From NCBI RefSeq assembly GCF_053078305.1, contig NZ_CP166879.1: a stretch of DNA of 64,000 nucleotides. One strand, written 5' to 3'. This document shows positions 29,336-47,845 of the stretch, one piece after another. Below the pieces are notes generated by a model. It saw only the letters and a program-made list of their open reading frames with translations. It was not told the DNA's origin and searched no databases. Both the position numbers and the translations under genes were made by a program. Every line of letters begins with the position of its first letter. Position 1 is the first letter of the stretch.

Positions 29336-30301
29336 TCACACCTCGTACTCCATCTCGCCATCCTTACGCAGCGGTATAATCTGCACCTTCTGCACGCGAT
29401 GGCTTTCTACCTGCAACGTTTTAAGCAAATAATCCCCCACCTGAACTTCTTCGCCAGGTTTTGGAATACGCTGCAAATATTCCATCAACAGCCCGGCAAT
29501 GGTGTGATATTCACGTTTTTCATCCAGCGGCAGCGGCACATATTGCACCAGATCCTCCAGCGGCATATGACCATTCGCCGTCCAGGAACCGTCCGCATTC
29601 TTCTGAATATCATGGCGGGCGTCGATCTCTTCCACTTCGTTCGGTAAGTTACCGGCAATGGTTTCAGTGACGTCACTTAATGTCACAATCCCTTCCACCG
29701 AGCCAAACTCATCCACCACAAAAGCAAAGTGCGTGCGGGCATTACGGAACTGCTCCAGGGCAGGTAACAACGGCAAGGTTTCCGGGAACACCAGCGGCTG
29801 GCGAATCAACACCCGCAGGTTGAGCGGTTCGCCACGCAGAGACTGTTGTAGCAGGTCGATAACGTGAACAACACCGAGCAAATCTTCTGCGTCATCGCCA
29901 TCAGTAACCACCAGCCGCGTATGCTGATTTCGCTCCAGTAACTGGCGGATCTCGTCTTCCGGCGCGTTGAGATCGATATGCTCAATATCGTGGCGCGACG
30001 TCATAATGCTGCTGACGGTACGCTGGTTAAGATTAAGTACCCGCTCAATCATCCGCCGTTCCTGCGGATTAAAGATCTGCTGGTTACCATGATCCACCAG
30101 CATGGACGCGGTTTCGGCGTCCAGTTCCGCATCTTCTTTTTGCCCGCTAAGCAGGCGCATTACCGCTTCGGTAGTCCGCTGGCGCAGCGTCTGGTTAGCG
30201 GAAAGAAAACGTCGCCGGTTAAAGATAGCCAACTGATTGAGCGCCTCGATCATCACCGAGAAACCAATAGCAGCGTACAGGTAGCCTTTCGGAATGACGA
30301 A
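29336..30301 (-). pseudogene. yegH: yegH (TerC-CBS-CorC membrane protein) 3' fragment, truncated by prophage insertion
   Basis: Frame encodes ...GFVIPKGYLYAAIGFSVMIEALNQ... through C-terminus (~321 aa); upstream of 30301 the frame hits a stop and sequence becomes AT-rich prophage-end DNA. Confidence 0.8.
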
Positions 30302-30429
30302 TATAGCGCGGCGATTTTTTTGATACCGATTTGCATTTCATTTGATACCGCTGAAAAACGCCGATACGCAACTTATTTGATACTAAATCGGCGCTTTTCT
30401 TTTGAGTTTTAGAATGAGTTTTTAAGCGC
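30302..30429. promoter_or_regulatory. prophage terminal region with iterated TTGATACCG-like motifs (candidate transposase-binding end repeats)
   Basis: TTGATACCG at 30322 and 30343, CCGATACGC at ~30361, TTGATACT at ~30385, spaced ~21 bp. Confidence 0.45.
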
Positions 30430-31167
30430 TCATTCACTCTCTTTCAAACCAGTTTTAACTGTTTGTGGTTTTGGGTAAGGCTGGACTTTGAATAGCTTTG
30501 TGTTGAGGCGTTTTCTGGCCCTCTTGTTCAGAAACCGGATGTAACGAAACTGTCGGAACTTATGCACACTGGCTCTGTCGATATTAGCCCTCAGATGTTC
30601 ACCTCGTTGTCCGCCTCGTTTAATGGCATTCCTGCAAATCTCGTGATACCACTCGCCATCAAGTTCATAGAATGTTGATTCATGGCTGCCTACATAATCA
30701 AAATTGCTTGCCTGATACACGACACCAAGACAGCCACAACGCTCATCTGCAAACGACTGAACCCACTGTACCTGCGGATAAAGATGCCTGATTAGCTTGA
30801 GCGCGTAACTGATTGCCCTTGATTCGGAGTTTCTCGGCATACAGTCATGCATCCATAGCCGGTTAAGCTCCATATATTCTCGGTTCTGCGTACCCGTTAC
30901 GACGCGTGCACCACTGTTTGGGTTAAGGGCGTAACCCCATTGCATTACGCCAACAAGTTCCCGTTCTGAAAATATACCCAGATGAAGGTAGGAATTATTT
31001 ACGAAACGGTGGCTGTAATGTTTATTGACGATAACCAGTCTGGCCAGCCAGCAACTTATTGTCTCAACCCGCAACTCACGGGAGCCATAACCAACGATAT
31101 TGTCGTTATAGCGAATAAGTTCAGGCGTGCTGATGATTCGGGATGTGACTTGCTTTCTGTTCCCCAC
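30430..31167 (-). CDS. mom: Mom-like DNA modification protein (call by position and operon context; GTG start)
   Basis: 245-aa ORF last before prophage end, overlapping upstream com-like gene as in Mu com-mom; sequence identity to Mu Mom not verified. Confidence 0.55.
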
Positions 31168-31321
31168 GACAGGATTTCCTTGTGTATGTGGGGTGCTCTG
31201 TGGCGCTCGGAGATGTGATTTGATTGAGGGTTTTACAGCGCGGACATTTTACTTCCAGATAACTGAAACTGGCCCGTGCCAGTAGCTTATTGCAGTGTCG
31301 GCACCGTATGTTTCGATACAT
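31121..31321 (-). CDS. com: Com-like zinc-finger translational activator (66 aa from internal ATG)
   Basis: [32 protein letters not shown]... resembles Mu Com (C-x2-C...C-x2-C); AGGAGG upstream. Confidence 0.7.
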
Positions 31322-32457: not shown

Positions 32458-34515
32458 TTATGCCGCAGGGGTATTAACCTCAAGGACAACGCTCTCAAAA
32501 GACACGCCATAAGTTGCCCCTTTGGTGACATCTGTCAGTGTCAGCGTATCTTTGGCAGGGGAAAGTGCATCTTTCACCATCTGGAATGCCTGGCCCGGAG
32601 TGCCATCCAGCACAGGCGTTACCTGGGCACTTCCCGCAGTAAACTTCAGGACAAGTGTATGCCACTGGTTATTGTAGGCTCCAAATGATCCCAGTTTCGT
32701 ATTCCCCCCTGTTTTATGGTGCATCAGATTTAACTGGCCGCCTGTTGTCTGGAGATAATACGCCATCAGGAACGGTGTGCCTGTACCACTCATGGTTACA
32801 CCTTCCGGGACCGTATCGGTGTGGAGGTAAATACCCAGAGCAAACTGGCCTTCTTTTACTTCACCTGACAGACGGAATTTACAGGTCAACTGACCACCAT
32901 GCTTCAGAAGTTCACCGGCTGCATCAGTTCCATGGGTAAGCGTCCAGGTTTTTCCGCTTTGTTTGGATACGGTCAACGCTTTACCTTCGTCCGTCAGCTG
33001 GATTGTACCATCTGTAATTTTCCATCCCTGAGCCGGGGCTTCCCCTGCTGATGCTTTAAGTGAAAGCAGCGTACGGAGTGACGGGGATGTCGGCTGGGGG
33101 GACTCACTGCTTCCTGGCTGACTACCTGTCGGAGCTTCCGGTTTTCCACCCGGCGCGGGCTGAGGCAGGGCTTCACCATCAGGGGCCACACCGGCAATAA
33201 ATGCAGAGGTCAGACCTGCATATTTAAGAATTGCTGATGCAAAACGATCTGAGACCAGAAAACGGCGCGCCCAGGAGCTAAAATGGGTTGCCCTGGATGC
33301 TGTTGTCCAGTTGCCATCTCCCCGTGATTCCGCACCATAATACCCGGCAGAAGCGATATCCGGGTCGTGCTCCGGCAGGTTGGTCGCGGTTTTATTACCG
33401 AACTCATCGTGCATCAGTGGAACAAAGTGAATGTTCTCGGAAGCCCGGTTTTTATATCCGCTATAAATGGTTTCATATGCCGCCGGGTTCTTCTCTTTCC
33501 AGTCATAGGTTGTGTCACCACATAACCACGGCACACTGTCTGATGAACCACCAATACACTGACCGGAGAAAGCACCAAGATCCGCACGGAATTTTTTCAC
33601 CATCGCAGTAAACTGGGCACCATGCTGGGCCGGGGTCGCTTTAAGGTCTCCTTCCCCCTGAATCCATACGACAGATAACAGCACATTCTTTGGATTCGCC
33701 TCAAGTGCCGCTTTCGTTCGACTGACAAGATCCTGATACAGTGGGGTATCCACTCCCCAGCGTAGTGACGCCTCGGCTGCACCACTTGCCGGATCGAATG
33801 AGCCAACTGCGCCGGTTGTAAAAGCAGAGCCGCCACGGGCACAGGGAACCAGTAAAATCCCGGCATCAGCAGGAATCACCGGTAATACTTTTTTCGCAAT
33901 ATGAAGTCCCTGACCCACACAACCATACTGCCCTTTTTTCAGGTCTGCTTTTGGATGGTTCAGCAGACTCATATTCTGAACATCATGAAGGCAGTGATCT
34001 GCTGGAATGATTTCATTGTATTTGCAGGGAATACCCCCGGGGGTTTGTGTATTCCTGCGTGCCAGCTGCATAATACGTGGATCAGGACGATCATAAGAAT
34101 CCGGCAGGGGCAACCCTTCACCATAAGATGAAGCATTGGACTGACCGGCTATAACAATCACGTAATACCAGGAAGGGGAGCTGGAAGCCGTTTCATTTCC
34201 TGCCGGACGGGTATGTGTGTCAGCATTATCCCAGTCTGACGGTTCAGCAGTACCGGCAACATCAGCACTTAACGGAATGACAGCACCAATACCCGCTCCG
34301 GTAATTTCCACGTTCGGATCACCGGATACTGGCCTTACCCACAGGCAATCCCGTGTATTAAAACTGATGAGACAGTCAGCAAATGTCATTCCTCCTTTCG
34401 TTTCAGCCGGAGGAAAGGGAGCCTCAAGAAATGCCGCTGTACCACCGGAAACTTTAACGGTAAAGTTTCCGGGCATTGATGATAGTTGAACCCATTTGGA
34501 CGTCATAATATTCAT
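32458..34515 (-). CDS. SGNH/SASA-family carbohydrate esterase, NanS-p-like (putative sialate O-acetylesterase) with C-terminal lectin-like domain
   Basis: 685-aa ORF; VIVIAGQSNASSYGEG (GQSN block I), CARGGSAF, IQGEGD, DGNW...H blocks; Pro/Ser linker then beta-rich C-terminus. Confidence 0.55.
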   Translation of the reverse strand: MNIMTSKWVQLSSMPGNFTVKVSGGTAAFLEAPFPPAETKGGMTFADCLISFNTRDCLWVRPVSGDPNVEITGAGIGAVIPLSADVAGTAEPSDWDNADTHTRPAGNETASSSPSWYYVIVIAGQSNASSYGEGLPLPDSYDRPDPRIMQLARRNTQTPGGIPCKYNEIIPADHCLHDVQNMSLLNHPKADLKKGQYGCVGQGLHIAKKVLPVIPADAGILLVPCARGGSAFTTGAVGSFDPASGAAEASLRWGVDTPLYQDLVSRTKAALEANPKNVLLSVVWIQGEGDLKATPAQHGAQFTAMVKKFRADLGAFSGQCIGGSSDSVPWLCGDTTYDWKEKNPAAYETIYSGYKNRASENIHFVPLMHDEFGNKTATNLPEHDPDIASAGYYGAESRGDGNWTTASRATHFSSWARRFLVSDRFASAILKYAGLTSAFIAGVAPDGEALPQPAPGGKPEAPTGSQPGSSESPQPTSPSLRTLLSLKASAGEAPAQGWKITDGTIQLTDEGKALTVSKQSGKTWTLTHGTDAAGELLKHGGQLTCKFRLSGEVKEGQFALGIYLHTDTVPEGVTMSGTGTPFLMAYYLQTTGGQLNLMHHKTGGNTKLGSFGAYNNQWHTLVLKFTAGSAQVTPVLDGTPGQAFQMVKDALSPAKDTLTLTDVTKGATYGVSFESVVLEVNTPAA

Positions 34516-34605: not shown

Positions 34606-34910
34606 TTATTTTTCCGAAATGCTCGCAGGATAATAACGATAAAGGGTTGAAAGGCCGATATCAAAAATAAGTGCCACCTGTCTTCGGCTGACACCCCCGG
34701 CCAGTAAACGCCCGACCTGCTCGTATTGTTCCTGCGTGAGACGACGGGGTCTGCCGCCGGTTCGTCCCCTTTCACGGGCAGCTGCAAGACCAGCCCGTGT
34801 CCGTTCGACAATCAATTCACGCTCCATTTCTGCCAGCGCACCCATTATGTGAAAAAAGAAGCGCCCCATGGGGGTTGACGTATCAATGTTGTCAGTAAGA
34901 CTACGAAAAT
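34606..34910 (-). pseudogene. gin: gin/pin-family DNA invertase, C-terminal fragment (HTH domain)
   Basis: Encodes FRSLTDNIDTSTPMGRFFFHIMGALAEMERELIVERT...GGRPRRLT...; matches Gin from about residue 90 onward. Confidence 0.8.
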
Positions 34911-34996
34911 GTAAGCGTAAACTGACCGCCGTATGTAGCCATTAAGCCAGTATTGGTAACGTAGGTGCCCACCTTTTCAACTAGTGGACACCTGTT

Positions 34997-35422
34997 ATGG
35001 AACAGAAAATATTATCCTCAGAACCCCGCAGATCATTTTCAAATGAGTTTAAACTTCAAATGGTTAAACTGGCTTCACAACCAGGAGCCTCTGTTGCCCG
35101 TATTGCCCGGGAACACGATATCAATGATAACCTCCTGTTCAAATGGCTCAGGCTCTGGCAGAACGAAGGGCGTATATCGCGGCGTCTTCCGGTAACAACC
35201 TCTTCTGGCGCTGGCGTTGAATTATTACCTGTTGAGATAACGCCTGATGAGCAGAAAGAGCCTGTGGCGGCTCTTACTCCGCTTTTATCCACTCCTTCAC
35301 AAAGCACAGTCAGTGCCAGTTCCTGTAAAGTTGAGTTCCGCCACGGTAACATGACGCTGGAAAATCCTTCACCAGAGCTGCTCACGGTGTTGATCCGTGA
35401 ACTGACCGGGAGGGGACGATGA
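34997..35422 (+). CDS. tnpA: IS66 family accessory protein TnpA (orf1)
   Basis: 141-aa ORF with HTH-like N-terminus. Confidence 0.85.
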   Translation: MEQKILSSEPRRSFSNEFKLQMVKLASQPGASVARIAREHDINDNLLFKWLRLWQNEGRISRRLPVTTSSGAGVELLPVEITPDEQKEPVAALTPLLSTPSQSTVSASSCKVEFRHGNMTLENPSPELLTVLIRELTGRGR

Positions 35423-35769
35423 TCTCGCTCCCATCAGGCACTCGAATCTGGCTGGTTGCCGGCGTTACTGATATGCGTAAATCCTTCAACGGTCTGGGAG
35501 AACAGGTACAACATGTGCTGGATGAGAACCCCTTCTCCGGTCACCTGTTTATCTTTCGCGGCCGACGGGGTGACACGATTAAAATTCTGTGGGCTGATGC
35601 TGATGGTCTGTGCCTGTTCACCAAACGTCTGGAGGAAGGCCAGTTTATCTGGCCTGCGGTGCGTGACGGTAAGGTATCCATTACCCGCTCGCAGCTGGCA
35701 ATGCTCCTCGATAAACTGGACTGGCGTCAGCCCAAAACATCCCGCCTTAATGCACTGACAATGTTGTAA
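35419..35769 (+). CDS. tnpB: IS66 family protein TnpB (orf2)
   Basis: 116-aa ORF MISLPSGTRIWLVAGVTDMRKSFNGL...; 4-bp overlap with orf1. Confidence 0.9.
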   Translation: MISLPSGTRIWLVAGVTDMRKSFNGLGEQVQHVLDENPFSGHLFIFRGRRGDTIKILWADADGLCLFTKRLEEGQFIWPAVRDGKVSITRSQLAMLLDKLDWRQPKTSRLNALTML

Positions 35770-35799
35770 AAATGTCATGGCCGGATTATAAAAACGGTC

Positions 35800-37413
35800 A
35801 TGAGTCGGAAATACCTCATTCGTATCACTGAGCTGGAAAGGCTGCTCTCTGAGCAGGCTGAAGCCCTCCGTCAGAAAGATCAGCAACTGAGTCTGGTTGA
35901 AGAGACGGAGGCCTTCCTGCGCTCTGCACTGGCACGTGCCGAGGAAAAGATCGAAGAGGAGGAGCGGGAAATAGAACATCTGAGGGCCCAGATAGAAAAA
36001 CTGCGCCGGATGTTGTTCGGTACCCGTTCTGAAAAACTGCAGCGTGAGGTTGAACAGGCTGAGGCCCAACTGAAACAACGCGAACAGGAAAGCGATCGTT
36101 ACAGTGGGCGTGAGGATGACCCGCAGGTTCCCCGCCAGTTGCGACAGTCACGTCATCGTCGTCCGTTACCGGCACATCTTCCCCGTGAAATACACCGTCT
36201 GGAGCCTGAAGAAAGTTGTTGCCCGGAGTGTGGCAGTGAGCTGGATTATCTGGGGGAAGTCAGTGCTGAGCAGCTGGAACTGGTGAGTAGCGCCCTGAAA
36301 GTGATCCGCACTGTTCGGGTAAAAAAAGCCTGTACAAAATGTGACTGTATAGTTGAAGCGCCAGCGCCGTCCCGCCCGATAGAGCGCGGCATCGCGGGCT
36401 CCGGATTACTTGCCCGCGTGTTAACGGGAAAATACTGCGAACACCTGCCACTGTATCGTCAGAGTGAAATCTTTGCCCGCCAGGGCATCGAACTGAGCCG
36501 GGCATTACTCTCCAACTGGGTTGACGCATGTTGTCAGTTAATGACTCTGCTGAATGATACCCTGTACCGTTACGTGATGAACACCCGCAAGGTTCACACT
36601 GACGACACACCAGTAAAAGTGCTGGCAGCGGGCAGAAAAAAGGCAAAAACAGGACGCATCTGGACGTATGTCCGGGATGACCGGAATGCGGGCTCATCAG
36701 AGCCACCGGCGGTCTGGTTCGCCTACTCACCAGACAGGCAGGGAAAACATCCGGTACAACACCTTCGTCCCTTCCGGGGTATCCTGCAGGCGGATGCGTT
36801 CAGCGGTTACGATCGGCTGTTCAGTGCAGAACGTGAAGGTGGTGCACTGACAGAAGTTGCGTGCTGGGCCCATGCCCGGCGAAAAATCCACGATGTATAC
36901 ATCAGCAGCAAAAGTGCGACGGCAGAAGAAGCCCTGAAGCGAATCAGTGAACTGTACGCCATCGAGGATGAAATACGGGGATTACCGGAGTCAGAGCGTC
37001 TTGCCGTCAGGCAGCAGCGAAGCAAAGTGTTACTGACGTCACTGCATGAATGGATGGTGGAGAAGAATGGTACGCTGTCGAAAAAATCCAGACTGGGCGA
37101 AGCGTTCAGCTATGTACTGAATCAGTGGGATGCCCTCTGTTATTACAGTGATGACGGTCTGGCGGAGGCGGATAATAATGCTGCGGAAAGAGCGCTTCGT
37201 GCAGTCTGTCTCGGAAAGAAAAACTTTATGTTCTTTGGCAGCGATCACGGCGGCGAGCGTGGAGCACTGTTGTACGGGCTGATCGGCACCTGCCGTCTGA
37301 ACGGTATCGATCCGGAAGCGTATCTGCGCCATATCCTGAGCGTACTGCCAGAATGGCCTTCCAACCGAGTTGATGAACTCCTGCCATGGAACGTAGTACT
37401 CACCAATAAATAA
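35800..37413 (+). CDS. tnpC: IS66 family transposase TnpC (orf3)
   Basis: 537-aa ORF with leucine-zipper N-terminus, CxxC zinc motifs and DDE-type core. Confidence 0.9.
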   Translation: MSRKYLIRITELERLLSEQAEALRQKDQQLSLVEETEAFLRSALARAEEKIEEEEREIEHLRAQIEKLRRMLFGTRSEKLQREVEQAEAQLKQREQESDRYSGREDDPQVPRQLRQSRHRRPLPAHLPREIHRLEPEESCCPECGSELDYLGEVSAEQLELVSSALKVIRTVRVKKACTKCDCIVEAPAPSRPIERGIAGSGLLARVLTGKYCEHLPLYRQSEIFARQGIELSRALLSNWVDACCQLMTLLNDTLYRYVMNTRKVHTDDTPVKVLAAGRKKAKTGRIWTYVRDDRNAGSSEPPAVWFAYSPDRQGKHPVQHLRPFRGILQADAFSGYDRLFSAEREGGALTEVACWAHARRKIHDVYISSKSATAEEALKRISELYAIEDEIRGLPESERLAVRQQRSKVLLTSLHEWMVEKNGTLSKKSRLGEAFSYVLNQWDALCYYSDDGLAEADNNAAERALRAVCLGKKNFMFFGSDHGGERGALLYGLIGTCRLNGIDPEAYLRHILSVLPEWPSNRVDELLPWNVVLTNK

Positions 37414-37443
37414 GCGTCAATACGGTGCTCCGTTGACGCTTAC

Positions 37444-37759: not shown

Positions 37760-37785
37760 ATACCTGAAACCTCGGTTTACGGGAA
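37760..37785 (-). promoter_or_regulatory. gix-like recombination site (invertase crossover site), gin-proximal
   Basis: Minus-strand TTCCCGTAAACCGAGGTTTCAGGTAT vs recalled Mu gix TTCCTGTAAACCGAGGTTTTGGATAA (21/26). Confidence 0.6.
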
Positions 37786-38154
37786 ACGGTAAACAGGGCT
37801 GCAAATGCCCTGCCATCGAATGGTACAGCCGTAGCGGCAAACAAGCTGTCTGCGGCACGTAAAATTAACGGTGTTGCGTTCGATGGCACAAAGGACATCA
37901 CTATTACATCCGGGATGACCCAGTCTACAGCAGACGGCAGATATGTTCGTAATGTGCAACTTGGTGCTCAGAGCCGCCACTCTCCTGCGGGTAATGAAGT
38001 CACCTGGGATTATAAAACGCCAGCAGGTTGTATGCTTTCTGGTATTCATGTGCAGGATACCGGCTCCCGGTCTGCGGATAATATCGGTGGGGTCTATTAT
38101 CGCCCGGTTCAGATTTATATTAATAATGCCTGGAGAACGGTAAGTTCAGTGTAA
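37768..38154 (+). other. silent alternative tail-fibre C-terminal cassette (Sv'-like), no own start codon
   Basis: Frame open from 37768: NLGLRETVNRAANALPSNGTAVAANKLSAARKINGVAFDGTKDITITSGMTQSTADGRYV..., paralogous to C-terminus of the 38790..39677 fibre. Confidence 0.6.
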
Positions 38155-38188
38155 ACCACAGAAAAGGGTGCTGAATGCACCCTCTGAA

Positions 38189-38710
38189 TTATTCCGGTTT
38201 TTCCGGCCAGGAAATCGCCAGGTAATGTCTCTCGCTGGCAATATCATTAAGGTGCATTTCTTTAAGCTGTCGGATATACGCCATCCAGCGCGTCAGCTTT
38301 AATTTATTTTCATCGCTAATCATGTCCAGTTTTAGTTCTGTTTTCCAGTCATCCACGGTTCCGTTGGCCTCCTGGAGCAGCGATGAACGGCGATTTTCAG
38401 CAACCGTATTCCAGTTTACCGGCACCTTTGATATCAGGCCATCAGAAAACTGCCAGTTACCGTCAATATTCACACCTTCCGGCAGTTGGTCCACTTCAAC
38501 AACAGTAAAACCCGCCGGATATAAAGCAGAGACATCTTCAGCAACAGAGCAGATAATACCCGTTACAGGCGAAATACAGAGTTTGTATTTCTTTGTGAAA
38601 AGCGGGATAGATTCATAAAAATCCCTTCCGTCCTCACTCTGGAAATACTGAACATTCTCACCATAGGGTTTGTGTTCTGGGTAATATCGTTTTACGTTAA
38701 TAAGCTCCAT
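38189..38710 (-). CDS. tail fibre assembly protein (Tfa/U-like), 173 aa from MELINVK
   Basis: ORF-track frame 38189..38821; AAGGTGA RBS before ATG at 38710. Confidence 0.75.
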   Translation of the reverse strand: MELINVKRYYPEHKPYGENVQYFQSEDGRDFYESIPLFTKKYKLCISPVTGIICSVAEDVSALYPAGFTVVEVDQLPEGVNIDGNWQFSDGLISKVPVNWNTVAENRRSSLLQEANGTVDDWKTELKLDMISDENKLKLTRWMAYIRQLKEMHLNDIASERHYLAISWPEKPE

Positions 38711-38789
38711 TATTTCACCTTGTTTTTGTTGAAAAGACAAAATCATCATATATTTATTCAGATAATCTGTTTTTTGAACTACTGCACTT

Positions 38790-39677
38790 TTATGCGCTGG
38801 AAGCTGTTTTCCACGAACCATTTATCAGAAACTGAACAGGTCGATAATATGCGGTTACCGTCGCATTACCATCACCAGCGACATCAAGCCCTGTAAGTAC
38901 GCATCCGTCAGGAACTTCAAAAATATTATATTGCATTCCAATCGTTGACCTTGAACCTCTTCGAATGCTTTGAACATAACGTGAGTCAGCCACAGACTGC
39001 GTCATCCCCGATGTAATATTTATATCCTTCGTTCCGTCGAAAGGAACCCCATTAATATTTACTGGGGTGGCGAGTTTATTCGCTGCCACGGCGGTTCCAC
39101 CCGATGGCAGGGCATCAGCAGCCTTATTTACCGTTTCCCGTAAACCGACGTTATCGATAAAGGTTCCTTTGTCCGGGATATCCGCGCCATTCTGGTCCCT
39201 GCGCAGATAACGCGCATCGCCTTCTCCCTTACTGTAAACATCAAGATTCAGACGAGCCGTCGGTTTATCCGGTACATCGTCAAAATTCCGGGATTTCTCC
39301 AGTGCTCCCACATCAGCAGCAGCCAGGCTGTCTTTTCCTGATAATCCTCCCAGCCCCAGATGACGGCGGGCAGCAGCCTGTGCTTCTGCACCTGCATCCG
39401 CAATCTCCTTAAGGTTGTTTTTCCGGCTGTATGCGTTTGCTGCAATGATTGCCTTAATGGCTGTCACCAGCTGGTTCAGTTTTGCCTTATCCGGCTGAAC
39501 CTTTCCTTCTGTCAGAATGGCAAGCAGCTCTGCCTGCACGATGTTCAGCCAGTCCTGACCGATATAGCTGATCCCTTTGCGTCCGTCACCTTCAGTAAAC
39601 CATTTAACCTGCGTACCCTGAGAGGGGGCCAGTGGTGGCATATCGGTCACACCTGAATTGTTGTCGACAAAATACAT
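38790..39677 (-). CDS. tail fibre protein (S-like; constant N-terminal part plus currently expressed variable C-terminus)
   Basis: 295-aa ORF; C-terminal third is paralogous to the plus-strand cassette; gix-like site inside at the constant/variable junction. Confidence 0.8.
   Translation of the reverse strand: MYFVDNNSGVTDMPPLAPSQGTQVKWFTEGDGRKGISYIGQDWLNIVQAELLAILTEGKVQPDKAKLNQLVTAIKAIIAANAYSRKNNLKEIADAGAEAQAAARRHLGLGGLSGKDSLAAADVGALEKSRNFDDVPDKPTARLNLDVYSKGEGDARYLRRDQNGADIPDKGTFIDNVGLRETVNKAADALPSGGTAVAANKLATPVNINGVPFDGTKDINITSGMTQSVADSRYVQSIRRGSRSTIGMQYNIFEVPDGCVLTGLDVAGDGNATVTAYYRPVQFLINGSWKTASSA
39135..39160 (+). promoter_or_regulatory. gix-like recombination site inside tail-fibre gene
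   Basis: TTCCCGTAAACCGACGTTATCGATAA; inverted relative to site at 37760-37785. Confidence 0.6.
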
Positions 39678-40234
39678 TACTCCGTCTCCTCATGACTGTT
39701 TTCGTACAGATATAAAAACGTCTGCCAGGCTGGCTTATAACGGTTTAAAATGCACTCCAGCGCACTTGCATCATAAATTCGCAGTGGTGTAAGAATATCG
39801 TCCAGTACATTCATGTGACGGTATCCCACCGCCGTCTTCACTGTCACAATACTGATCCATTGTGATTCCGGTGATGGCTGGATATCTATTTCATAACCAA
39901 ACTCTGCCGCAAACCGGATATAAAATTCACGGTTAAGAGAGGGTTTCATCCGGTATTTATTCCCGGCATAACGCTGACGCTCCTGAATGGTTGCGCCGGT
40001 CATATCACATTCCGGTAACCCCAGATAACGCTCCCAGTCTTCCAGTAGCAGACGGGATGAATCAGGAAAACGTTCTGCCAGCATCTGGTTACCGGTCCAG
40101 GAAACACGCTCCGTGGAATGACTGAGACCCAGGCACAAAGCTGCAAGAACGGATGACGGCCGCTTATCCCATGCCAGCCCGTCAGGCAGCAACTGCAACA
40201 GGGCGCGCTGATGCGGGGTCAGGGTTACAGCCAT
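39677..40234 (-). CDS. Mu gp48-like tail protein (DUF2313/YmfQ-like)
   Basis: 185-aa ORF; position between baseplate J and tail fibre. Confidence 0.7.
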   Translation of the reverse strand: MAVTLTPHQRALLQLLPDGLAWDKRPSSVLAALCLGLSHSTERVSWTGNQMLAERFPDSSRLLLEDWERYLGLPECDMTGATIQERQRYAGNKYRMKPSLNREFYIRFAAEFGYEIDIQPSPESQWISIVTVKTAVGYRHMNVLDDILTPLRIYDASALECILNRYKPAWQTFLYLYENSHEETE

Positions 40235-41310
40235 GTGATTTCCCCCACGGTCAGCAACTCTGTATCTCCGGCCATTACGGACTTCAGCGGACTGCGAACT
40301 TCAAAATCCTCCAGTCCTTTCACCCCTGCAACAGCCCGCCAGAATGATGAAGGCAATACAAGTCCACCCGGCCGCGATTCGTTATAAAGCAGGTCCGTTA
40401 ATGCCTGTTTTACGGCAGCCTGATTTTCCGGCGTTTTGGGTACAATCCTGATCTCAAACGCCACCGGCTTATTGGTCAGCTTAAACACGCTGATTGTCGG
40501 CCCAAGTGGCTGACCAACGGGCTGGCCCGTCGCCGGATCATCATGACTGCGGATATAATCCGCCACCCGCTTCACATCACCTTCTCCGGGGAAAATGTCA
40601 GGGTTATTATCCTGAACAAAAGTCACACCAACACTACCCGCCTCTGGCCATTCAGGCTTACACCATGCCCGCGTCACGCCCGGTACTTCCCGTGCCCAAC
40701 GTTCAAAATCATACTGTGTTCCCCCTGATGGCGGGTTCTGTACCCGGAATACCAGCCTGGACAGCAACTCCGGCACCGTTTCCACATCCGCACCACCGGT
40801 GAGTCCCGTGCCGGTAACCGTGGCTGTCTGGTTGATGCCCGCCTGTGGCGTGATAAAGGACAGGCGGGTTCCGGTCGGGGTATTTCCGGCGCGCCCCGCA
40901 CTTTCCGCCTCCACATTAACATTCAGTGTTCCGGCTTTTCCGGTCGCAGAGCCGGTGATGCGGTACACAACACCATCGCTTCGCTGAAGGAGTACGCCTT
41001 CCGTGATCCCTGCATCCGTGGTCAGCATCAGTTGTACCGGTCCGTCAGCGCGGGAAGCCGGTTTACGGATGACACCCCAGAATGCGCAGTGTTTCAGGAG
41101 TTCGGCTTCATCAGCTTCTGTCGGAATTATCTGCCGGGAGATCCAGGCCAGATGTTCATGCTCCTGTGCTGACAGACCCGCCAGTGCATACGCAATGGCA
41201 TTCAGGGTGGTTTCATTCACGCCCGGCTGCGAACCGGGCAGGCGCTGGCTGATATCCTGTTGTGTCTGTGTGATCAGTTGCGCCAGTGGTAAGGGCTGAT
41301 AAGGCATCAT
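40225..41310 (-). CDS. baseplate J-like protein (Mu gp47-like)
   Basis: 361-aa ORF; synteny. Confidence 0.8.
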   Translation of the reverse strand: MMPYQPLPLAQLITQTQQDISQRLPGSQPGVNETTLNAIAYALAGLSAQEHEHLAWISRQIIPTEADEAELLKHCAFWGVIRKPASRADGPVQLMLTTDAGITEGVLLQRSDGVVYRITGSATGKAGTLNVNVEAESAGRAGNTPTGTRLSFITPQAGINQTATVTGTGLTGGADVETVPELLSRLVFRVQNPPSGGTQYDFERWAREVPGVTRAWCKPEWPEAGSVGVTFVQDNNPDIFPGEGDVKRVADYIRSHDDPATGQPVGQPLGPTISVFKLTNKPVAFEIRIVPKTPENQAAVKQALTDLLYNESRPGGLVLPSSFWRAVAGVKGLEDFEVRSPLKSVMAGDTELLTVGEITWL

Positions 41311-41744
41311 TCCCCCTTCATATCAGCATAAAAAATCATCGGATGTCTGCTTCCGTCCGGCAGGGTGATTTTCACGGAAAGCGAAAGGCGATCATGCCCC
41401 ACACGCATGGCATGACATACCACGGATGTGGCAGCACCGCTTTTATGCAGCCACGCCAGCGCTTCATCAGCATAGGCCTGTGCACGGCTGACCACGGAGG
41501 ACAGCGTCTTTTCACGGCTTAACAGCCAGAGACGGGAGCCAACGGGGCGCTCCCGGAAACTGTCTCCCCACCATCCCCGACGGTCACGGGTGCCGTCAGG
41601 GATTTCATCGGAATCCAGCGCCCGCCTGTCCGTAAACAGTGAAATAATGACCGCAGTCAGCAGGCTGTTATCCGTCAGAAGATCTGCGCCGTTCAGTTGC
41701 AGGGAACCACAACCCTGATCCCAGACGACAGCAATATCAGCCAT
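41307..41744 (-). CDS. Mu gp46-like baseplate protein (145 aa from MADIAVVWDQ)
   Basis: ORF-track frame 41307..41957; start chosen to give 8-bp overlap with upstream gene. Confidence 0.6.
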   Translation of the reverse strand: MADIAVVWDQGCGSLQLNGADLLTDNSLLTAVIISLFTDRRALDSDEIPDGTRDRRGWWGDSFRERPVGSRLWLLSREKTLSSVVSRAQAYADEALAWLHKSGAATSVVCHAMRVGHDRLSLSVKITLPDGSRHPMIFYADMKGE

Positions 41745-42351
41745 TCTCTGGTCCTCCCGTTTTGCTGCCTTCACCGTTATCGTGATGCACATGACCTGAA
41801 TAGGCGATCCCGGCAATAACCGCTTCGGACATCGTGAACGTCCCCTGTGATCTTCCGGTGCCGTCAATGGACACATTGCCTTTGACATGCAGGTTCTTAT
41901 CCACTGTGACATTACCGGTAAAGTGAGCCTCCGGTGTATCCACCTGAACACCTTCATCGGCGTAAATCTCCAGCGTCTTACAGGTCACAATGATCCGGCC
42001 GTTCTTTGTCAGACGTATACGGTGCCCCTCATGGTGATACACGCCGGTATCTCCGGCGGTAAGTCCGGTCGGGCGACTGCGGCGGTCTTCCACCACAAGC
42101 ACCACGGCCTGATCCCGTTGTCCGCCAGCACAGGCCAGAAAAACTTCCGCACCAGGCAGGGGGACGCTGATTTGCCCGTACTGCTGGGGGCGCTCAACGT
42201 CATCAAAGGTTTCACCATCCATACAGGTGATTTGCACATTCTGGATTTTCAGCGTGTCCGTTGTGCCGGTCAGTACACCACGCCCGAACAGCAGACGAAC
42301 ACCCCGCATCACGGGGGCCAGAAGGCGGCTGATGACTTCGTCATTCATCAT
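41737..42351 (-). CDS. baseplate assembly protein V / spike (Mu gp45-like)
   Basis: 204-aa ORF; gpV-like. Confidence 0.75.
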   Translation of the reverse strand: MMNDEVISRLLAPVMRGVRLLFGRGVLTGTTDTLKIQNVQITCMDGETFDDVERPQQYGQISVPLPGAEVFLACAGGQRDQAVVLVVEDRRSRPTGLTAGDTGVYHHEGHRIRLTKNGRIIVTCKTLEIYADEGVQVDTPEAHFTGNVTVDKNLHVKGNVSIDGTGRSQGTFTMSEAVIAGIAYSGHVHHDNGEGSKTGGPENG

Positions 42352-43465
42352 TGAATTTAATCCCCTGTTTTTTCATCTGTGCCCGCACGAAGGCGTCCAC
42401 GTCACCCGCATTTCCGCTTCCGCTGTTTCCCGGCTCTGCCGGAACAATAAAGCCGTCACGGGGTGCCAGAATCAGACGGGTGGTTTCGCCGTGATTTGCA
42501 TCCAGCGAAAACTCCACCTGACAGACAAGAAGATCACGCTCTTCCACTCCGGTGCGGGGAGCCGTGACAGCCGTCAGCAGGTTGATATCCCACAACTGGC
42601 CGTTCTCCCGAAACCAGTGCCGCACGGTGGCTGTCAGGCGCACAGAGCGGGCAACCGCCCGGCGCATTTCCCGGACAGCCCTCTGGCGTGCACCGTCTGC
42701 ATCAACAGCATGATCCGCCAGCACAATTTTCGGTCTGTAACGGTGGATGGCACTGTCTGTCACCGTACCAACGGGTGCGGCCAGCGTTCCGGCTGTCAGT
42801 GCATCCCCGGCATGACCACCACCACGCCCGTGCCCCCGTACACGGTATTCACTGTGGCGCAGACGGTGATCCACGTTGTGATCCAAATCCAGCAGATTTT
42901 CGCCCAGCGTCAGCGTGTCGCCACGCTGACTGCCGGCCTGAGTGAAAACCAGTTCACCGGCGGCATTACTGGTTACCAGGACGCCTCTGTGTCTCGCGGC
43001 CCGTGTCAGCGCATCTGCCACGGTTTCTGAGTTTTCCAGTGTGAAGGTGGAAAAGGGCCGGGCTGCCGTTGCATCATTTACCTGCCAGCGCACCGTGACC
43101 CCGAACGGAGCACACAAATCTGAAGCAATGTGCTCCAGCGTGCGGTTCCTCCACTGGCTGCCCGGATGAATGGCTGAACAGTCCACCAGGTCACCGGTTT
43201 TATCCCGTCCGCTGAGCGTGATCTGAAAACGCGTGGCGCTGATGCGCTGCCGGACCTGATCCAGCCAGCCAGTGATCACAGGCTGACCGTCAATGCGCAA
43301 TTCCAGAGACTGACCGGCACGGACGGATGACGGAAGGCGTACACCTGGCATCATTACCCCCAGTTCAAAGGAGCCCGCCAGATGTTCAAGAGAGCGACGA
43401 ACACTCACCGTCAGCCAGCCGGAAAAAATCTCACCGCCCAGATACAGTTCAACCCTGCTGCTCAC
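42341..43465 (-). CDS. Mu gp44 / P2 gpD-like tail protein
   Basis: 374-aa ORF; synteny. Confidence 0.7.
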   Translation of the reverse strand: MSSRVELYLGGEIFSGWLTVSVRRSLEHLAGSFELGVMMPGVRLPSSVRAGQSLELRIDGQPVITGWLDQVRQRISATRFQITLSGRDKTGDLVDCSAIHPGSQWRNRTLEHIASDLCAPFGVTVRWQVNDATAARPFSTFTLENSETVADALTRAARHRGVLVTSNAAGELVFTQAGSQRGDTLTLGENLLDLDHNVDHRLRHSEYRVRGHGRGGGHAGDALTAGTLAAPVGTVTDSAIHRYRPKIVLADHAVDADGARQRAVREMRRAVARSVRLTATVRHWFRENGQLWDINLLTAVTAPRTGVEERDLLVCQVEFSLDANHGETTRLILAPRDGFIVPAEPGNSGSGNAGDVDAFVRAQMKKQGIKFNDE

Positions 43466-44819
43466 TAATCACCTCCACTGAATGGCCTCCGGGAATGAAC
43501 AGCGGATCAACAATACCGTTACGGCGCACAAAACGTTGCCAGCCGGTACTGTTCCCGGTGGCACGGTACAGGGTCACCAGTGCAGGCTCGGTGGTACGTA
43601 CAGTCACTACTGTTGCACCGGATAGCTGAACTCCCCGTGTATTCAGATCCTCTGTCAGTGCCAGTCTGGCATCACGAAGCGTCAGCGCCGTGGCGGTATA
43701 CCCCTGCCCGGACAGTGTCATCACCTGCCGTTCGAGCGCTTCGCTTAAGTCACGGTTAATGCGCTGAAGATCAACTGAACTTTCCAGCCAGACAGGCCAG
43801 GTACGGTGGGCTGCGTCACTGTCCGGCAGGGTTTCCTGACTGAGAACCTGATCCAGCAGTTTTCCCACGGTCTGTGCCTGGGCCACCACGGCAGCACTCT
43901 GCATTACCGCCCGTATCAGACGAATATTCTTTTGTGCTGCCGGTGTCAGACCGATGAGAGTCTGCGGATTATCCTGCTCATCCAGCACGTAACGCAGGGA
44001 AGATAATGTCCTGTACAGTTGCGGCATTCCCTGAGAGACGGCGGATGTCGTCCGGCCGATACTGCCACCGGGCCGGGTATTCAGGCCTCCTGAAGACAGT
44101 GACGGCAGCGATGGCAGGGTGATCAGGGCACTGAAAAGCCCCGCAAAAGATGAGGCCATGCGGGAAGGTGCTGTCAGTAATGCCGTGGCATTCCCTTTCA
44201 GCGCCGTGAACGTGGCAGTAAAGGCACTGATATCCTGTACAATCCCCATGCCGGAAACGGCATTTTCCAGGGCGGACACCTTATCGCTGATGGTTTCGGT
44301 CATTGCCTGGACATCGTGCATTCCGTCAGAAATCACCGTCCAGCCCGCTTCCAGGGTTTCAAAAACCTGCCCGAGCGCGGTGGTACTCTTCTGCTCCAGA
44401 ATGGCGGCCGTGTCCTGTGTGACAGCAGGTGCAGTATCATCACTTACCGGCGTGACATTAATGGTGAACTCAACCACGCCCTGTTCAGCGGCGTTATAAC
44501 GACTTTCAAAGCTGTTTATCAGCACATTTAACGTGCCGTAATCCGGGTGAAGCAGCTCCCCGGCACCGGGAGCACGAAGGGCATCACGCAGACGATTTCG
44601 CTGCGTCTGAACATCATCCCCCATCACAAGTACACTGAACGTAAATTCAGCCAGTTTAGGTCCCAGATCGTCTGCCCCACCGGTTTCCCGTAACGGATAT
44701 TCCCGACGGACAATGTTTCGCCCGCCACGTTCGCGCTGCTCACGCCAGACGAGGAACGGCACACCACGGAACGCACCACGACCGTCACCAGAGGCCATAA
44801 TTCCCTCCGTTCCAGACAT
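43449..44819 (-). CDS. Mu gp43-like (DNA circulation protein family) tail protein
   Basis: 456-aa ORF between tape measure and gp44. Confidence 0.7.
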   Translation of the reverse strand: MSGTEGIMASGDGRGAFRGVPFLVWREQRERGGRNIVRREYPLRETGGADDLGPKLAEFTFSVLVMGDDVQTQRNRLRDALRAPGAGELLHPDYGTLNVLINSFESRYNAAEQGVVEFTINVTPVSDDTAPAVTQDTAAILEQKSTTALGQVFETLEAGWTVISDGMHDVQAMTETISDKVSALENAVSGMGIVQDISAFTATFTALKGNATALLTAPSRMASSFAGLFSALITLPSLPSLSSGGLNTRPGGSIGRTTSAVSQGMPQLYRTLSSLRYVLDEQDNPQTLIGLTPAAQKNIRLIRAVMQSAAVVAQAQTVGKLLDQVLSQETLPDSDAAHRTWPVWLESSVDLQRINRDLSEALERQVMTLSGQGYTATALTLRDARLALTEDLNTRGVQLSGATVVTVRTTEPALVTLYRATGNSTGWQRFVRRNGIVDPLFIPGGHSVEVISEQQG

Positions 44820-46854
44820 TCACATCCAGTCCGTGACCGGACGTGTCATCAATATCAATACTGCGAGCCTGCCACCCTTCCGGGGCAACCAGCTCCACAC
44901 GGGCAGAGGCTTTTTGTACCGCCTGTCCACTGCTTTCATCATCACTGCCCCGTAATTTCTGCCAGGCTTCAGTCAGCCACCCCCCCAGATAGTTACCGAG
45001 ATAGCTGCCCACCGTGGAACCAATGGCAATCCCCACAGGTCCGGCTGCCGCCCCCAGCGCACCACCGGCAATACTGCCTGCAAGAGAGCCGACCGCTTCT
45101 CCCTTGTCTGTGATACTGGCGCTGCCATCCAGCAGAACCGGGGCTGCCATCGCGCCAGCCCACAGGGCACCGCCACCCAGCCGTCCAGCCAGTCCACCGG
45201 CACTGCGGAAAAAGCCGGAGAAACGCCCCAGTCCCATGCGGTTACCGGCAGACGAAAGCAACCCACCGGCGCGCCCCATCATGCGCCCCCAGAACCCTGA
45301 CCCACCAGAAGAGGGCGACGGTGGCACAGGGGACGGTGGCAGGGGAGGCGTGACCGGTCTTCCGCGCCCCGGTCCGCGTTTCCTGCGACCCCGCCCCTGA
45401 CGTCCGCCTGAGGATGTATCGGTCGCGCCGGTGCCGGACAGCCCTCCTGCGGGCCAGTTTGTTACAAGCACTGGCTGAACGGCTGCCGGATTTACCCCGG
45501 TAAGAAAGTTTATAAAGCGCTGGCCGCGTCCTGGCGGCGTTCCCGGTACGGTAGTTTGTGGTTTGCGGAAAGGAGAGGTCAGCACGGCCGCCGCGGATAA
45601 TCCGTACCCCAACAATGCCGCTCCTGGTCGCAGTGCTCCCAGCCCGATTGCGCGGACTACCTTCAGTGCACGGGTGGCGAGATACATGTACAGCAGGTAT
45701 TTCGCGGCGGTCTGTGCCCCCTGACCAATGCGATCCAGCGCATCACCATAGCCCGCATCCCGCAGAGCCTGAAGCGTGTCGCGTACCTTTCTGATCGCCT
45801 GATAAAACCCTGTCACTGCATCACGGGCATACTCAAAGCCCTGGTTCATGGCTGATGCTGTGCTTTCCGCCAGGGAATGGTAACTGCCATCAGATTTGGC
45901 ACTGTCAACCCATGAAAGAAATCCCCTGAGATTACCCTTCAGTTTTTCAAATGGCCCACTGTCCATCACATCCCGGGCAAACTGATCCCAGACGTCACCC
46001 ATCATGGCCGTCAGGCCACTCCAGGAATTCATTGCGTCCTTTTGTGCTCCCCTGGCCTGTTCCGCCAGCGTCTGAAATAACAGGCGAATACTGTCCGGCC
46101 CAAGCAGCCCTTTTTCACCAAGTTTTCTGACCACTTTCTGGTCCACACCCAGACGATCAGCCAGCACGCGGTAGGCATTAATGCCGTAGGTGGCAAGAAT
46201 ATTTGCATCCGCCGCCTGAATACTGCCTCTTGCATACATCTGTTTCAGTTGCAGGGATGCCCCCTGTGCATCGGACAGTGACCAGCCGCCCACGGCACCC
46301 TGATCCTGAAGCATGGTGACAAAATTTCGGGCCTCCCTGTCACTCATACCAAAGCCCAGACTGGACGTATATTCCTGCATGACGCCAGCCAGCCCCCAGG
46401 TGGTTTCCTTCGCATTCTGTATTGCCCACCTGCGGACATCATCCGTTTTCGCCCGATCCCCTTTGTAAAGGGAGTTCAGGCGAATCATATAGGTTTCCAT
46501 CTCCGCTGCCGGGCGAATAAATCCCCGGTTAAAGCCATATACAGCAGCACCACCGGCCAGCATTCCGTAAAGATTGCTGATCCGCCCGATGGTGCCGGTA
46601 ATACTGCCCTGAAGACGGTCAAAATCAGAAGTAACATGGCGGATACTGCCCCGCACCCCGGCCAGCGTGCGCTGCATCCTGCTTCCGAGTACATCTGTTT
46701 CCTGCCCGGCACGGCGGGCAGCATTTCCCAGACCACCCAGCCCCGCCTGGCCGGAGTGTGAGAATGCCCCCAGCTCCTGAGACCACTGGCGGGATTTGGC
46801 TGAGATATTGCCGAGCAAATCAACTATCAGAGATGCTCTGAGATTTCGGGCCAT
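44785..46854 (-). CDS. tail tape measure protein (Mu gp42-like)
   Basis: 689-aa ORF with long helical regions and Gly/Pro-rich low-complexity stretch. Confidence 0.8.
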   Translation of the reverse strand: MARNLRASLIVDLLGNISAKSRQWSQELGAFSHSGQAGLGGLGNAARRAGQETDVLGSRMQRTLAGVRGSIRHVTSDFDRLQGSITGTIGRISNLYGMLAGGAAVYGFNRGFIRPAAEMETYMIRLNSLYKGDRAKTDDVRRWAIQNAKETTWGLAGVMQEYTSSLGFGMSDREARNFVTMLQDQGAVGGWSLSDAQGASLQLKQMYARGSIQAADANILATYGINAYRVLADRLGVDQKVVRKLGEKGLLGPDSIRLLFQTLAEQARGAQKDAMNSWSGLTAMMGDVWDQFARDVMDSGPFEKLKGNLRGFLSWVDSAKSDGSYHSLAESTASAMNQGFEYARDAVTGFYQAIRKVRDTLQALRDAGYGDALDRIGQGAQTAAKYLLYMYLATRALKVVRAIGLGALRPGAALLGYGLSAAAVLTSPFRKPQTTVPGTPPGRGQRFINFLTGVNPAAVQPVLVTNWPAGGLSGTGATDTSSGGRQGRGRRKRGPGRGRPVTPPLPPSPVPPSPSSGGSGFWGRMMGRAGGLLSSAGNRMGLGRFSGFFRSAGGLAGRLGGGALWAGAMAAPVLLDGSASITDKGEAVGSLAGSIAGGALGAAAGPVGIAIGSTVGSYLGNYLGGWLTEAWQKLRGSDDESSGQAVQKASARVELVAPEGWQARSIDIDDTSGHGLDVNVWNGGNYGLW

Positions 46855-46856
46855 AC

Positions 46857-47039
46857 TTACTGCTTCGTTCTGATGATTTTTTCTGTCTGTCGGCAGTGCC
46901 GGTAAAGTTGCGACAGGGGGAGGTTAAGCGCCCATTCCGGGCCGCTTTTTGTCACCATCCCCAGGATAATTGCCGCTTCTTCAATCTGATCCCGACACTG
47001 CGCCTGATCGCCCCCGGTCAGCTGCCAGCTTTCCGGCAA
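46857..47039 (-). CDS. overlapping +1-frame ORF downstream of chaperone, candidate frameshift extension
   Basis: Overlaps 3' end of 46981..47475 in +1 frame; G-run CCGGGGGC in overlap. Confidence 0.3.
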   Translation of the reverse strand: MPESWQLTGGDQAQCRDQIEEAAIILGMVTKSGPEWALNLPLSQLYRHCRQTEKIIRTKQ

Positions 47040-47475
47040 GCGCGGTATCCAGCAGGCTGACCGCTGCCATCAGGCGGGAGAGATCGCGCTCGCTTAACTG
47101 TCCAATCTGACGGGGTGACAACGGACCTTCAATGTCTCCCACTTCGGCAATCTGACGGCGCAGCAGTGCAACACCGCGTAACGACGGAGACGCTATCAGC
47201 ATCGGGCCATTGTTTGTCTCCACCACGCGCTCGGCTTCTGCTTCTGCGTCAATACTGTCTTTCGCTGTCAGTTCCCGGAACGTGACACGATATTCACGGG
47301 TCTCACCAAACGGCAGACCATCAAGCAGATCCACATATCCCTTTGCCAGTTGCTCTGTCAGCCCGGCAGTGCGTGGATCAGCCCCCTCAAGTGCTTCCCG
47401 GATTGCCTCCATCACGGCTGCCTCGGAAACTGCCGTTTTTTTCTTACGTGTGGTCATTTTATTTTTCCTGATCAC
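46981..47475 (-). CDS. tail assembly chaperone (Mu gp41-like)
   Basis: 164-aa acidic ORF between tail tube and tape measure. Confidence 0.6.
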   Translation of the reverse strand: MIRKNKMTTRKKKTAVSEAAVMEAIREALEGADPRTAGLTEQLAKGYVDLLDGLPFGETREYRVTFRELTAKDSIDAEAEAERVVETNNGPMLIASPSLRGVALLRRQIAEVGDIEGPLSPRQIGQLSERDLSRLMAAVSLLDTALAGKLAADRGRSGAVSGSD

Positions 47476-47837
47476 TGAACACGGGTACTGGTGGCGCTGG
47501 CGAACTTCACGGAGATCTCCCCGCCACCGTCAAGCGAGGCCGGTTCACTGCTCCAGGCCTTCGTCATCATGTGGACTTCGCCGGTATCCGCCACAAACTC
47601 GATAGTGACCGCAGTCCAGTTGTTGATTTCATCAGCGGCTGGTGAGCCTTCTCCGCCTGCCGGAAATTTGCAGTCCAGCGTCGCTTCACGTGGTTTCTGG
47701 CGGTAACCATAGACTTTCGCGCCTTTCACCACTTCACGTTCAAAACCTGACGGAGAAAATGTAGCCCCCTCAAGCGTCTCGTATTCCTGACCGTTCACAC
47801 GGATAGTGGCCGTGCCCTGATACTGTTTTCCGCTCAT
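47472..47837 (-). CDS. tail tube protein (Mu gp40-like)
   Basis: 121-aa ORF directly after sheath. Confidence 0.7.
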   Translation of the reverse strand: MSGKQYQGTATIRVNGQEYETLEGATFSPSGFEREVVKGAKVYGYRQKPREATLDCKFPAGGEGSPAADEINNWTAVTIEFVADTGEVHMMTKAWSSEPASLDGGGEISVKFASATSTRVQ

Positions 47838-47845
47838 GCCTTACC

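Follow-up and report, generated by a model that had tools for sequence, protein, structure and literature searches.

Results

A Mu-like prophage interrupts yegH

The window (the whole stretch of 64,000 nucleotides that was analysed) is E. coli DNA in which the minus-strand host gene yegH is cut by a Mu-like prophage. The features around the cut, each with its basis in brackets, are the following:

29336..30301, minus strand: 3' part of yegH, a TerC-family host gene cut by the prophage (host-genome matches and comparison with K-12)
30298..30301, no strand: CGAA, right-end copy of a predicted 4-bp target duplication (from 7 of 7 insertions elsewhere; the second copy would lie beyond the window)
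30302..30303, no strand: terminal dinucleotide TA (17 independent right junctions including the window, plus Sakai Sp18 and Kp4866-3)
30302..30429, no strand: attR, the non-coding right end of an Sp18-type prophage, from the terminus to the mom stop codon (98–99% identity to other copies)
30307..30328, plus strand: R1, putative transposase-binding site with core TTTGATAC at 30319–30326 (22-bp extent by analogy with Mu R1, positions 6–27)
30329..30350, plus strand: R2, putative transposase-binding site with core at 30341–30348, abutting R1 (Mu R2 occupies positions 28–49)
30353..30399, minus strand: hairpin enclosing R3, with a 13-bp stem GAAAAGCGCCGAU/AUCGGCGUUUUUC on the mom sense strand (inverted repeat, 92% complementary)
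30364..30385, plus strand: R3, putative accessory transposase-binding site with core at 30376–30383, oriented as R1 and R2 (repeat family and comparison with Mu)
30430..31167, minus strand: mom (DNA modification), the last prophage gene (Pfam Mom, 257 bits; 79% identical to Mu Mom)
31121..31321, minus strand: com, translational regulator of mom (Com-family annotation in homologous copies; 46% identical to Mu Com; coordinates transferred from copy L001)

To the right of mom and com follow more than 33 kb of Mu-like late genes, also on the minus strand.

The host–prophage junction is at 30301|30302, where yegH is interrupted. The last 40 host bases (30262–30301, annotated as yegH) have matches in about 5000 complete E. 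coli genomes, and all of these matches end at 30301; prophage copies at other sites match the window from 30302 onward. The uncut K-12 gene reads ...ggaatgacgaa|gccgaaacc, the window reads ...ggaatgacgaa|TATAGCGCGGCG, and the prophage side begins TATAGCGCGG. The start coordinate given in a first-pass annotation of this DNA, 30302, is thus the exact terminus. The segment 30302–30429 is 98–99% identical to the right ends of the copies L001, L023, L024 and L025, all at different chromosomal sites, and is the attR of an Sp18-type Mu-like prophage in yegH.

The right terminus in the window reads 5'-TATAGCG, so that its terminal dinucleotide is TA and the transferred strand ends ...GCGCTATA-3' and not ...CA-3'. 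A further 16 right junctions in unrelated flanks all start with TATAGCGCGG behind a variable base; the TATAGCG end is also found in L023, L024, L025, L030 and Sp18 of strain Sakai. At 14 of 17 junctions (L002–L016 and the window: T 8, A 6, G 2, C 1) an A or T precedes TATAGCG as the final base of the duplication, a bias that may reflect a target preference.

That the true junction lies elsewhere and carries Mu-consensus sites and a terminal TG, with the TTGATAC repeats described below merely internal, is an outcome that the first-pass annotation had named as refuting its reading; we found nothing in its favour, and it has next to no chance of being correct. The yegH identity runs exactly to 30301, the 17 right junctions in unrelated flanks start TATAGCG, and the Mu consensus YGTTTCAYTNNAARYRCGAAAR, searched with up to three mismatches, gives no match in the window or in L001 with its flanks. 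The same search in phage Mu, used as a positive control, recovers four sites (L1, L3, R2 and R3). The first-pass annotation was therefore right that Mu-type sites are missing here.

The prophage is of the Sp18 type

The right end and most of 30302–64000 are 93–99% identical to L001, L023, L024 and L025, and such copies occupy many sites in Shiga-toxin-producing (STEC) and other E. coli; compared with copies in STEC genomes, the prophage is 96–99% identical for most of its extent. Of 5426 complete E. coli genomes, about 225 (~4%) carry an Sp18-type copy, at many different sites; none of the 5426 has one in yegH, which makes this a new insertion site. The prophage measures 38.7 kb in L001 and 38,755 bp in Sakai (L033/L034, NC_002695.2), where Sp18 has the same termini as the other copies. 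The Sakai record places the Sp18 feature at 5040971..5079729, whereas we find the termini at 5040970 and 5079724, an offset of 1 and 5 bp.

Sp18 was described between 2001 and 2009 as an intact, packaged, non-circularising Mu-like phage (PMC2669165), and its variable insertion sites have been noted (PMC7430833, PMC10132054). The prophage family has hence been known since 2001, as Sp18 of O157 Sakai. In the freely readable literature we found nothing on the ends or binding sites of Sp18 or on a 4-bp duplication in Mu-like phages.

Three inward-pointing repeats mark the right end

On the plus strand TTTGATAC occurs at 30319–30326, 30341–30348 and 30376–30383, with all three copies pointing inward and core distances of 19, 41 and 76 from the right terminus. 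A repeat search returns them as a three-copy family of 16 nt with spacings of 22 and 35 bp. The motif reported in the first-pass annotation is thus present and non-random, but the spacing of about 21 bp given there fits the first interval alone. Pooling the sites yields the consensus A-W-N-T-Y-W-TTTGATAC-Y-R, and the terminal 10–12 bp (TATAGCGCG / TGTAACCAGG) are also conserved across relatives. No TTTGATAC is found at the ends of phage Mu. One site, R2 (CATTTCATTTGATACCG), partly resembles the first half of the Mu consensus; R2 alone does so, and we take this as coincidence.

Could the repeats be a chance cluster in A+T-rich sequence? Over the whole window TTTGATAC is found 4 times against 1.65 expected, a count that 9 of 100 shuffles reach and that is not significant by itself. 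Against chance stand the three copies within 65 bp on one strand, the conservation of the repeat positions in three diverged relatives, and the complete copy L001 (NZ_CP027368), which with its flanks holds 8 matches against 1.05 expected (0 of 100 shuffles reach 8), 6 of them inward-pointing and at most 170 bp from the two termini. We consider a chance origin to be vanishingly improbable.

L001 carries one extra TTTGATAC, at 36413–36420 on its plus strand, where a short gap separates the transposase gene from the B-ATPase gene, a region beyond the window. It may be a chance match or an internal binding site.

The left end mirrors the motif, and insertions duplicate 4 bp

The window includes neither the left end nor the transposase gene, and both are described from copies elsewhere. 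Left junctions were read in five copies with flanks, in one contig that starts at the terminus, and in L028, L029, L030 and Sakai. Every one has TGTAACC; the ends begin TGTAACCAGGTGAATCATTTGATACC, or TGTAACCAGGTAAATCATTTGATACC in the L029 variant. The earlier remark that the junction shows no terminal TG accordingly holds for the right end, which is TA at 17 junctions, but not for the left end, which does have TG.

The first-pass annotation had also looked to the other prophage end for inverted copies of the motif, and there they are: complete copies have TTGATAC cores at 19, 114 and 166 from the left terminus, inverted relative to the right end and likewise pointing inward. At both ends the first core stands at position 19 from the terminus. 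The earlier suggestion that the repeats are plausibly bound by the transposase gains support from this mirrored arrangement and from the conserved positions. By comparative anatomy, we assign R1–R3 as probable sites for the phage's own transposase, each with a putative extent of 22 bp.

A 4-bp target duplication is present in all seven insertions for which both junctions could be read:

L001: TCCA (the rejoined flanks restore intact ydjL, 240/240 nt, 100% identity)
L008/L021: TTCT (two contigs of one genome; the pairing is probable, not certain)
L023: GTAA (in irp1)
L024/L028: AACA
L025/L029: TGAC
L030: CTCT (GenBank record LC727895)
Sakai Sp18: TAAA

The duplication in L030 was evidently noticed by the depositors of LC727895, whose annotation contains a 4-bp 'duplication due to insertion'. 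In L001 a 5-bp duplication, TCCAT, could also be read, because the next host base there is T. The other six insertions and the host sequence of the window (next base G) exclude this reading, since in 6 of 7 cases and in the window the next host base is not the phage terminal T. For the copy in the window we predict a left junction ...CCTGGTTACA|CGAAgccgaaacc about 5 kb past position 64000.

A hairpin downstream of mom encloses R3

The inverted repeat at 30353–30399 is predicted to fold as RNA at -23.6 kcal/mol (z = -3.6), and 0 of 200 shuffles fold as well. It ends in a U-run and lies 35 nt downstream of the mom stop. A simple terminator scan of the window did not report this hairpin, whose loop exceeds the 8 nt that the scan allows. 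The hairpin is probably the mom terminator.

The repeats might then serve mom expression, as part of a terminator or as sites for Com or another regulator. The stable hairpin with its U-run, which encloses R3, speaks for this, as does an analogous inverted repeat that, by eye, flanks R3 in the Yersinia phage vB_YpM_5. At the left end, however, some 38 kb away from mom, the motif is again present in three copies, the outermost of them equally far from the terminus, and the right-end variant L030 has no homology to the window across 30403–31153 (the mom region) yet keeps all three sites. L030 is 93% identical to the window over the first 101 bp (39830–39930 of that record), with R1–R3 at their positions. 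We regard a role of the repeats in mom expression as highly unlikely. A terminator at this place is compatible with transposase sites: the two would be overlapping functions and not alternatives, and the hairpin does not compete with the reading of 30302–30429 as an att site.

The transposase is related to that of SuMu, in an otherwise Mu-type genome

In a local tblastn against Mu, 37 of 53 prophage proteins match, at 30–79% identity when the transposase is excluded and mostly at 35–79%. Identities are 79% for Mom, 75% for Gin, 73% for the large terminase, 67% for the major head protein, 57% for Gam and 48% for the B ATPase. The remainder of the genome is collinear with Mu at 35–79% protein identity, in agreement with the conserved gene order noted at first sight.

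The transposase, taken from L001 (696 aa), stands apart from the other proteins with a Mu match. The comparison with MuA, which the first-pass annotation had proposed for this protein from outside the window, gives 24.5% identity in a 416-aa alignment (E 1.5e-7) that covers the core and the C-terminal part, against 35–79% for the rest. Its identity to the transposase of Haemophilus phage SuMu is 43% over 637 aa. The B ATPase has the opposite pattern, with 48% identity to MuB and 29% to SuMu B; it adjoins the transposase and gives a match to Pfam Phage-MuB_C. Pfam finds HTH_Tnp_Mu_1 (28.7 bits) and Mu-transpos_C (63 bits) in the transposase, with sub-threshold matches to rve, but neither DDE_2 nor HTH_Tnp_Mu_2, both of which MuA gives. 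A phmmer search of the PDB with the transposase yields no MuA, and weak matches to retroviral integrase cores alone. By sequence comparison the transposase groups with SuMu and not with MuA.

Residues D309, D375 and E415 are invariant in 65 homologues. An AlphaFold2 model built with 65 diverse homologues has a mean pLDDT of 87.4, and its best PDB match is MuA in the transpososome 4FCY (E 5e-18, 549 aligned columns), followed by TnsB of Tn7 and of CRISPR-associated transposons. The modelled structure thus places the transposase in the MuA/TnsB fold family. Of the methods applied, local tblastn, Pfam and the predicted fold were the ones to reveal the kinship with MuA. Members of this transposase family abound in E. 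coli, Salmonella, Shigella and Yersinia, and one cluster at 90% identity holds 7044 member sequences.

Mu and Sp18 are homologous to about the end of mom, beyond which the last ~130 bp of the two show no relation. This break supports co-evolution of a transposition module. The first-pass annotation had suggested a lineage distinct from Mu and D108: this stands for the transposition module, that is, the A gene and both ends, but not for the remainder, which is a Mu-type genome of a family known since 2001.

The motif follows the transposase in Yersinia and Klebsiella phages

The transposase of Yersinia phage vB_YpM_5 (L031, MT374853) is 79% identical to that of the Sp18 type. Its ends (4540–5000 of the record) have cores at 19/41/76 and 19/123/165 when the termini are set by the first motif at 19, with unrelated spacers. 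The left-end spacer has kept a likeness to that of Mu (CCGGGAGG...GATGGGAT), in contrast to the sites, which are TTGATAC-type. Both vB_YpM_5 and vB_YpM_6 (L032) belong to the genus Muvirus and have gene sizes near-identical to Mu, with an Sp18-type transposase and TTGATAC-type ends. Their artificially circularised records diverge after ...GCGCGCTTTAAT and before CTATGAAGAGG; with the first motif at 19 their termini would be TAAAGCG and TATGAAG, a reading from two records in which chance matches of the flanks are possible. That Muvirus phages have an Sp18-type A gene and ends suggests that the A gene and the ends form a module that appears exchangeable between Mu-type backbones.

Klebsiella phage Kp4866-3 (L035, OK490420) has a transposase 56% identical to that of the Sp18 type and asymmetric termini, TGTTACTAGG at the left and TATAGCGCGCG at the right, the right-terminus motif lying 3 bases inside the end of the record. 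Its TTGATAY cores are at 19/89/131 at the left end (TTGATAT at 19) and at 19/41/75 at the right end. The Yersinia vB_YpM phages and Kp4866-3 thus share the transposase clade and the site positions with the Sp18 type, but their backbones differ.

These relatives, together with the left-end variant L029, also bear on whether another phage protein, a repressor or a Ner-like protein, binds the repeats at both ends while the transposase reads a less obvious terminal sequence. Several Mu proteins bind the regulatory region at the left end of Mu, and the terminal 10–12 bp are conserved across relatives too, which would suit such an arrangement. However, the motif tracks the transposase clade, being present in Sp18, vB_YpM_5 and Kp4866-3 and absent at the ends of Mu; the sites at 6–27 and 28–49 coincide with the MuA sites R1 and R2 of Mu; and L029 has different left-end spacers and a different repressor gene from L001, with the cores at identical positions. 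We hold a repressor or Ner-like protein to be an unlikely reader of the repeats.

Discussion

A variant of the Mu kind of end

Mu is the textbook example of DDE transposition, with a CA-3' terminus, 22-bp MuA sites and a 5-bp stagger as its hallmarks. Like those of Mu and D108, the non-coding ends of the Sp18 type lie just past mom and carry three sites each (the stretch after mom is 115 bp in Mu). If the sites are taken as 22 bp, R1 and R2 occupy exactly the positions of the abutting sites R1 (6–27) and R2 (28–49) of Mu. The left-end layout is also shared, with L1 separated by a gap from L2/L3, which lie ~100–150 bp inward (in Mu, L1 6–27 and L3 151–172). Further likenesses to Mu and D108 are the left TG, random insertion, a MuB-type ATPase and, as modelled, the MuA transposase fold. 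The differences are in the recognition sequence, A-W-N-T-Y-W-TTTGATAC-Y-R against YGTTTCAYTNNAARYRCGAAAR in Mu and D108; in R3, direct in the Sp18 type and inverted in Mu; in the right terminus, TA and not TG; and in the duplication, 4 bp and not 5.

Of what defines a MuA att site, the Sp18 type therefore has the layout, but not the consensus sites, the TG...CA at both ends, the 5-bp duplication or the MuA-type Pfam set. Taken more broadly, as a transposable (Mu-like) phage, it has a DDE transposase of the predicted MuA/TnsB fold, a MuB-type ATPase, insertion at many sites with a short duplication, a genome of ~37–39 kb and Mu-like head and tail genes. The copy in the window belongs to the Sp18 type by near-identical DNA at its right end, its left end lying beyond the window. 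The ends are a variant of the Mu kind, with a new site specificity, TG/TA termini and a 4-bp duplication, and we found no paper describing them.

Among the compared phage transposases with published descriptions, that of SuMu is closest (43%), and D3112-like transposases are ~30% identical; the structural genes and the B ATPase of the Sp18 type are nevertheless closer to Mu than to SuMu. In the SuMu record neither end starts with TG, and both look like host flank. Target duplications measure 5 bp in Mu and 6 bp in B3, and according to a 2021 survey all Mu- and B3-like phages described so far had TG-CA ends, with the TA-TA prophages of Leptospira as unusual cases (PMC8705779). The Sp18 type, with 4 bp and TG/TA, does not fit the B3/Tn552 type, which has 6-bp duplications and TG-CA ends (PMC8705779). 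The Leptospira prophages (Olo Ndela et al. 2021, PMC8705779) share the terminal TA with the Sp18 type and are the sole published exception to TG-CA that we found. They have TA at both ends, a 6-bp duplication, a B3/Tn552-type transposase and unrelated genomes, whereas in the Sp18 type TA is confined to the right end.

A proposed mechanism

We are confident that the window holds the attR of an Sp18-type prophage in yegH, that the TTTGATAC repeats are the sites of its own transposase, and that this transposase has the MuA/TnsB fold and acts by a Mu-like mechanism; the reading as a whole is very probable. The prophage would have entered yegH by transposition. Transposase bound to R1, R2 and L1, with R3, L2 and L3 as accessory sites, would pair the ends in a Mu-like synaptic complex, which would nick the 3' ends, ...ACA-3' at the left terminus and ...ATA-3' at the right. 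The complex, together with the MuB-like ATPase, would then join these ends to target phosphates staggered by 4 bp, and repair or replication of this stagger would give the 4-bp duplication. The chemistry, like the binding by transposase and the extent of the sites, is proposed here by analogy with Mu. In this transposase family an end in TA-3' is uncommon, and it might be expected to reduce activity.

What do these ends imply for the family at large? They may belong to an undescribed transposition module in a widespread enterobacterial clade of Mu-like phages, consisting of a MuA-fold transposase, TTTGATAC sites, CA-3'/TA-3' termini and a 4-bp stagger, and moving as a unit. The A gene and both ends would move between Mu-type backbones, while the MuB-like ATPase stays Mu-like. 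The clade would include the Sp18-type prophages of E. coli, Shigella and Salmonella as well as Kp4866-3; the vB_YpM phages of Yersinia would probably belong to it too. We put this joint reading forward tentatively, as one that has a real chance of being right but that we would stop just short of calling probable. If true, it would provide a natural specificity-swap system for end reading, tolerance of non-CA termini and target-cut spacing in the MuA family.

The Sp18 type, found in the reference genome of O157 Sakai and in ~4% of the complete E. coli genomes, breaks three Mu hallmarks. It keeps the geometry of the Mu sites, and both its B ATPase and its virion genes are Mu-like. Within the MuA/TnsB family, which includes the CRISPR-associated transposons, it is a closely related natural case for comparing how ends are recognised, which terminal bases are tolerated and what sets the spacing of target cuts. 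When the rules of Mu are assumed, prophage boundaries and duplications are easily mis-annotated: an example is the offset in the Sakai record, and some genes called by PGAP extend past the junction.

Other features of the prophage in the window

An IS66-family element occupies 34910–37441, inside the gin-like invertase gene of the prophage, and has three ORFs with the Pfam domains HTH_Tnp_1, TnpB_IS66 and DDE_Tnp_IS66. The breakpoint corresponds to L001 5639–5647 within the CDS 5343–5903, and the 9-base overlap of the alignments suggests a duplication of ~8–9 bp. The insertion has probably locked the invertible tail-fibre segment in this copy. Relative to other copies, 37768–39152 aligns in reverse; this is the G-like invertible tail-fibre segment, lying in the opposite orientation.

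Between com/mom and the invertase, 32458–34515 on the minus strand encodes a cargo protein of 685 aa with SASA (sialate O-acetylesterase) and DUF6645 domains, which has no Mu counterpart. The variant L030 (LC727895), an Sp18-type phage, sits within an Stx1a phage; over the baseplate and tail-tip region (38997–48688 of the window) it is only 78–80% identical to the window. In L001 (22023–22102) and L023 (21234–21314) the PGAP annotation has a 'tRNA-OTHER' between F (gp30) and G, two genes with no space between them in Mu; an ARAGORN search of the window gives no tRNA. The stretch 52491–52874, beside the position of this 'tRNA-OTHER', is variable between copies.
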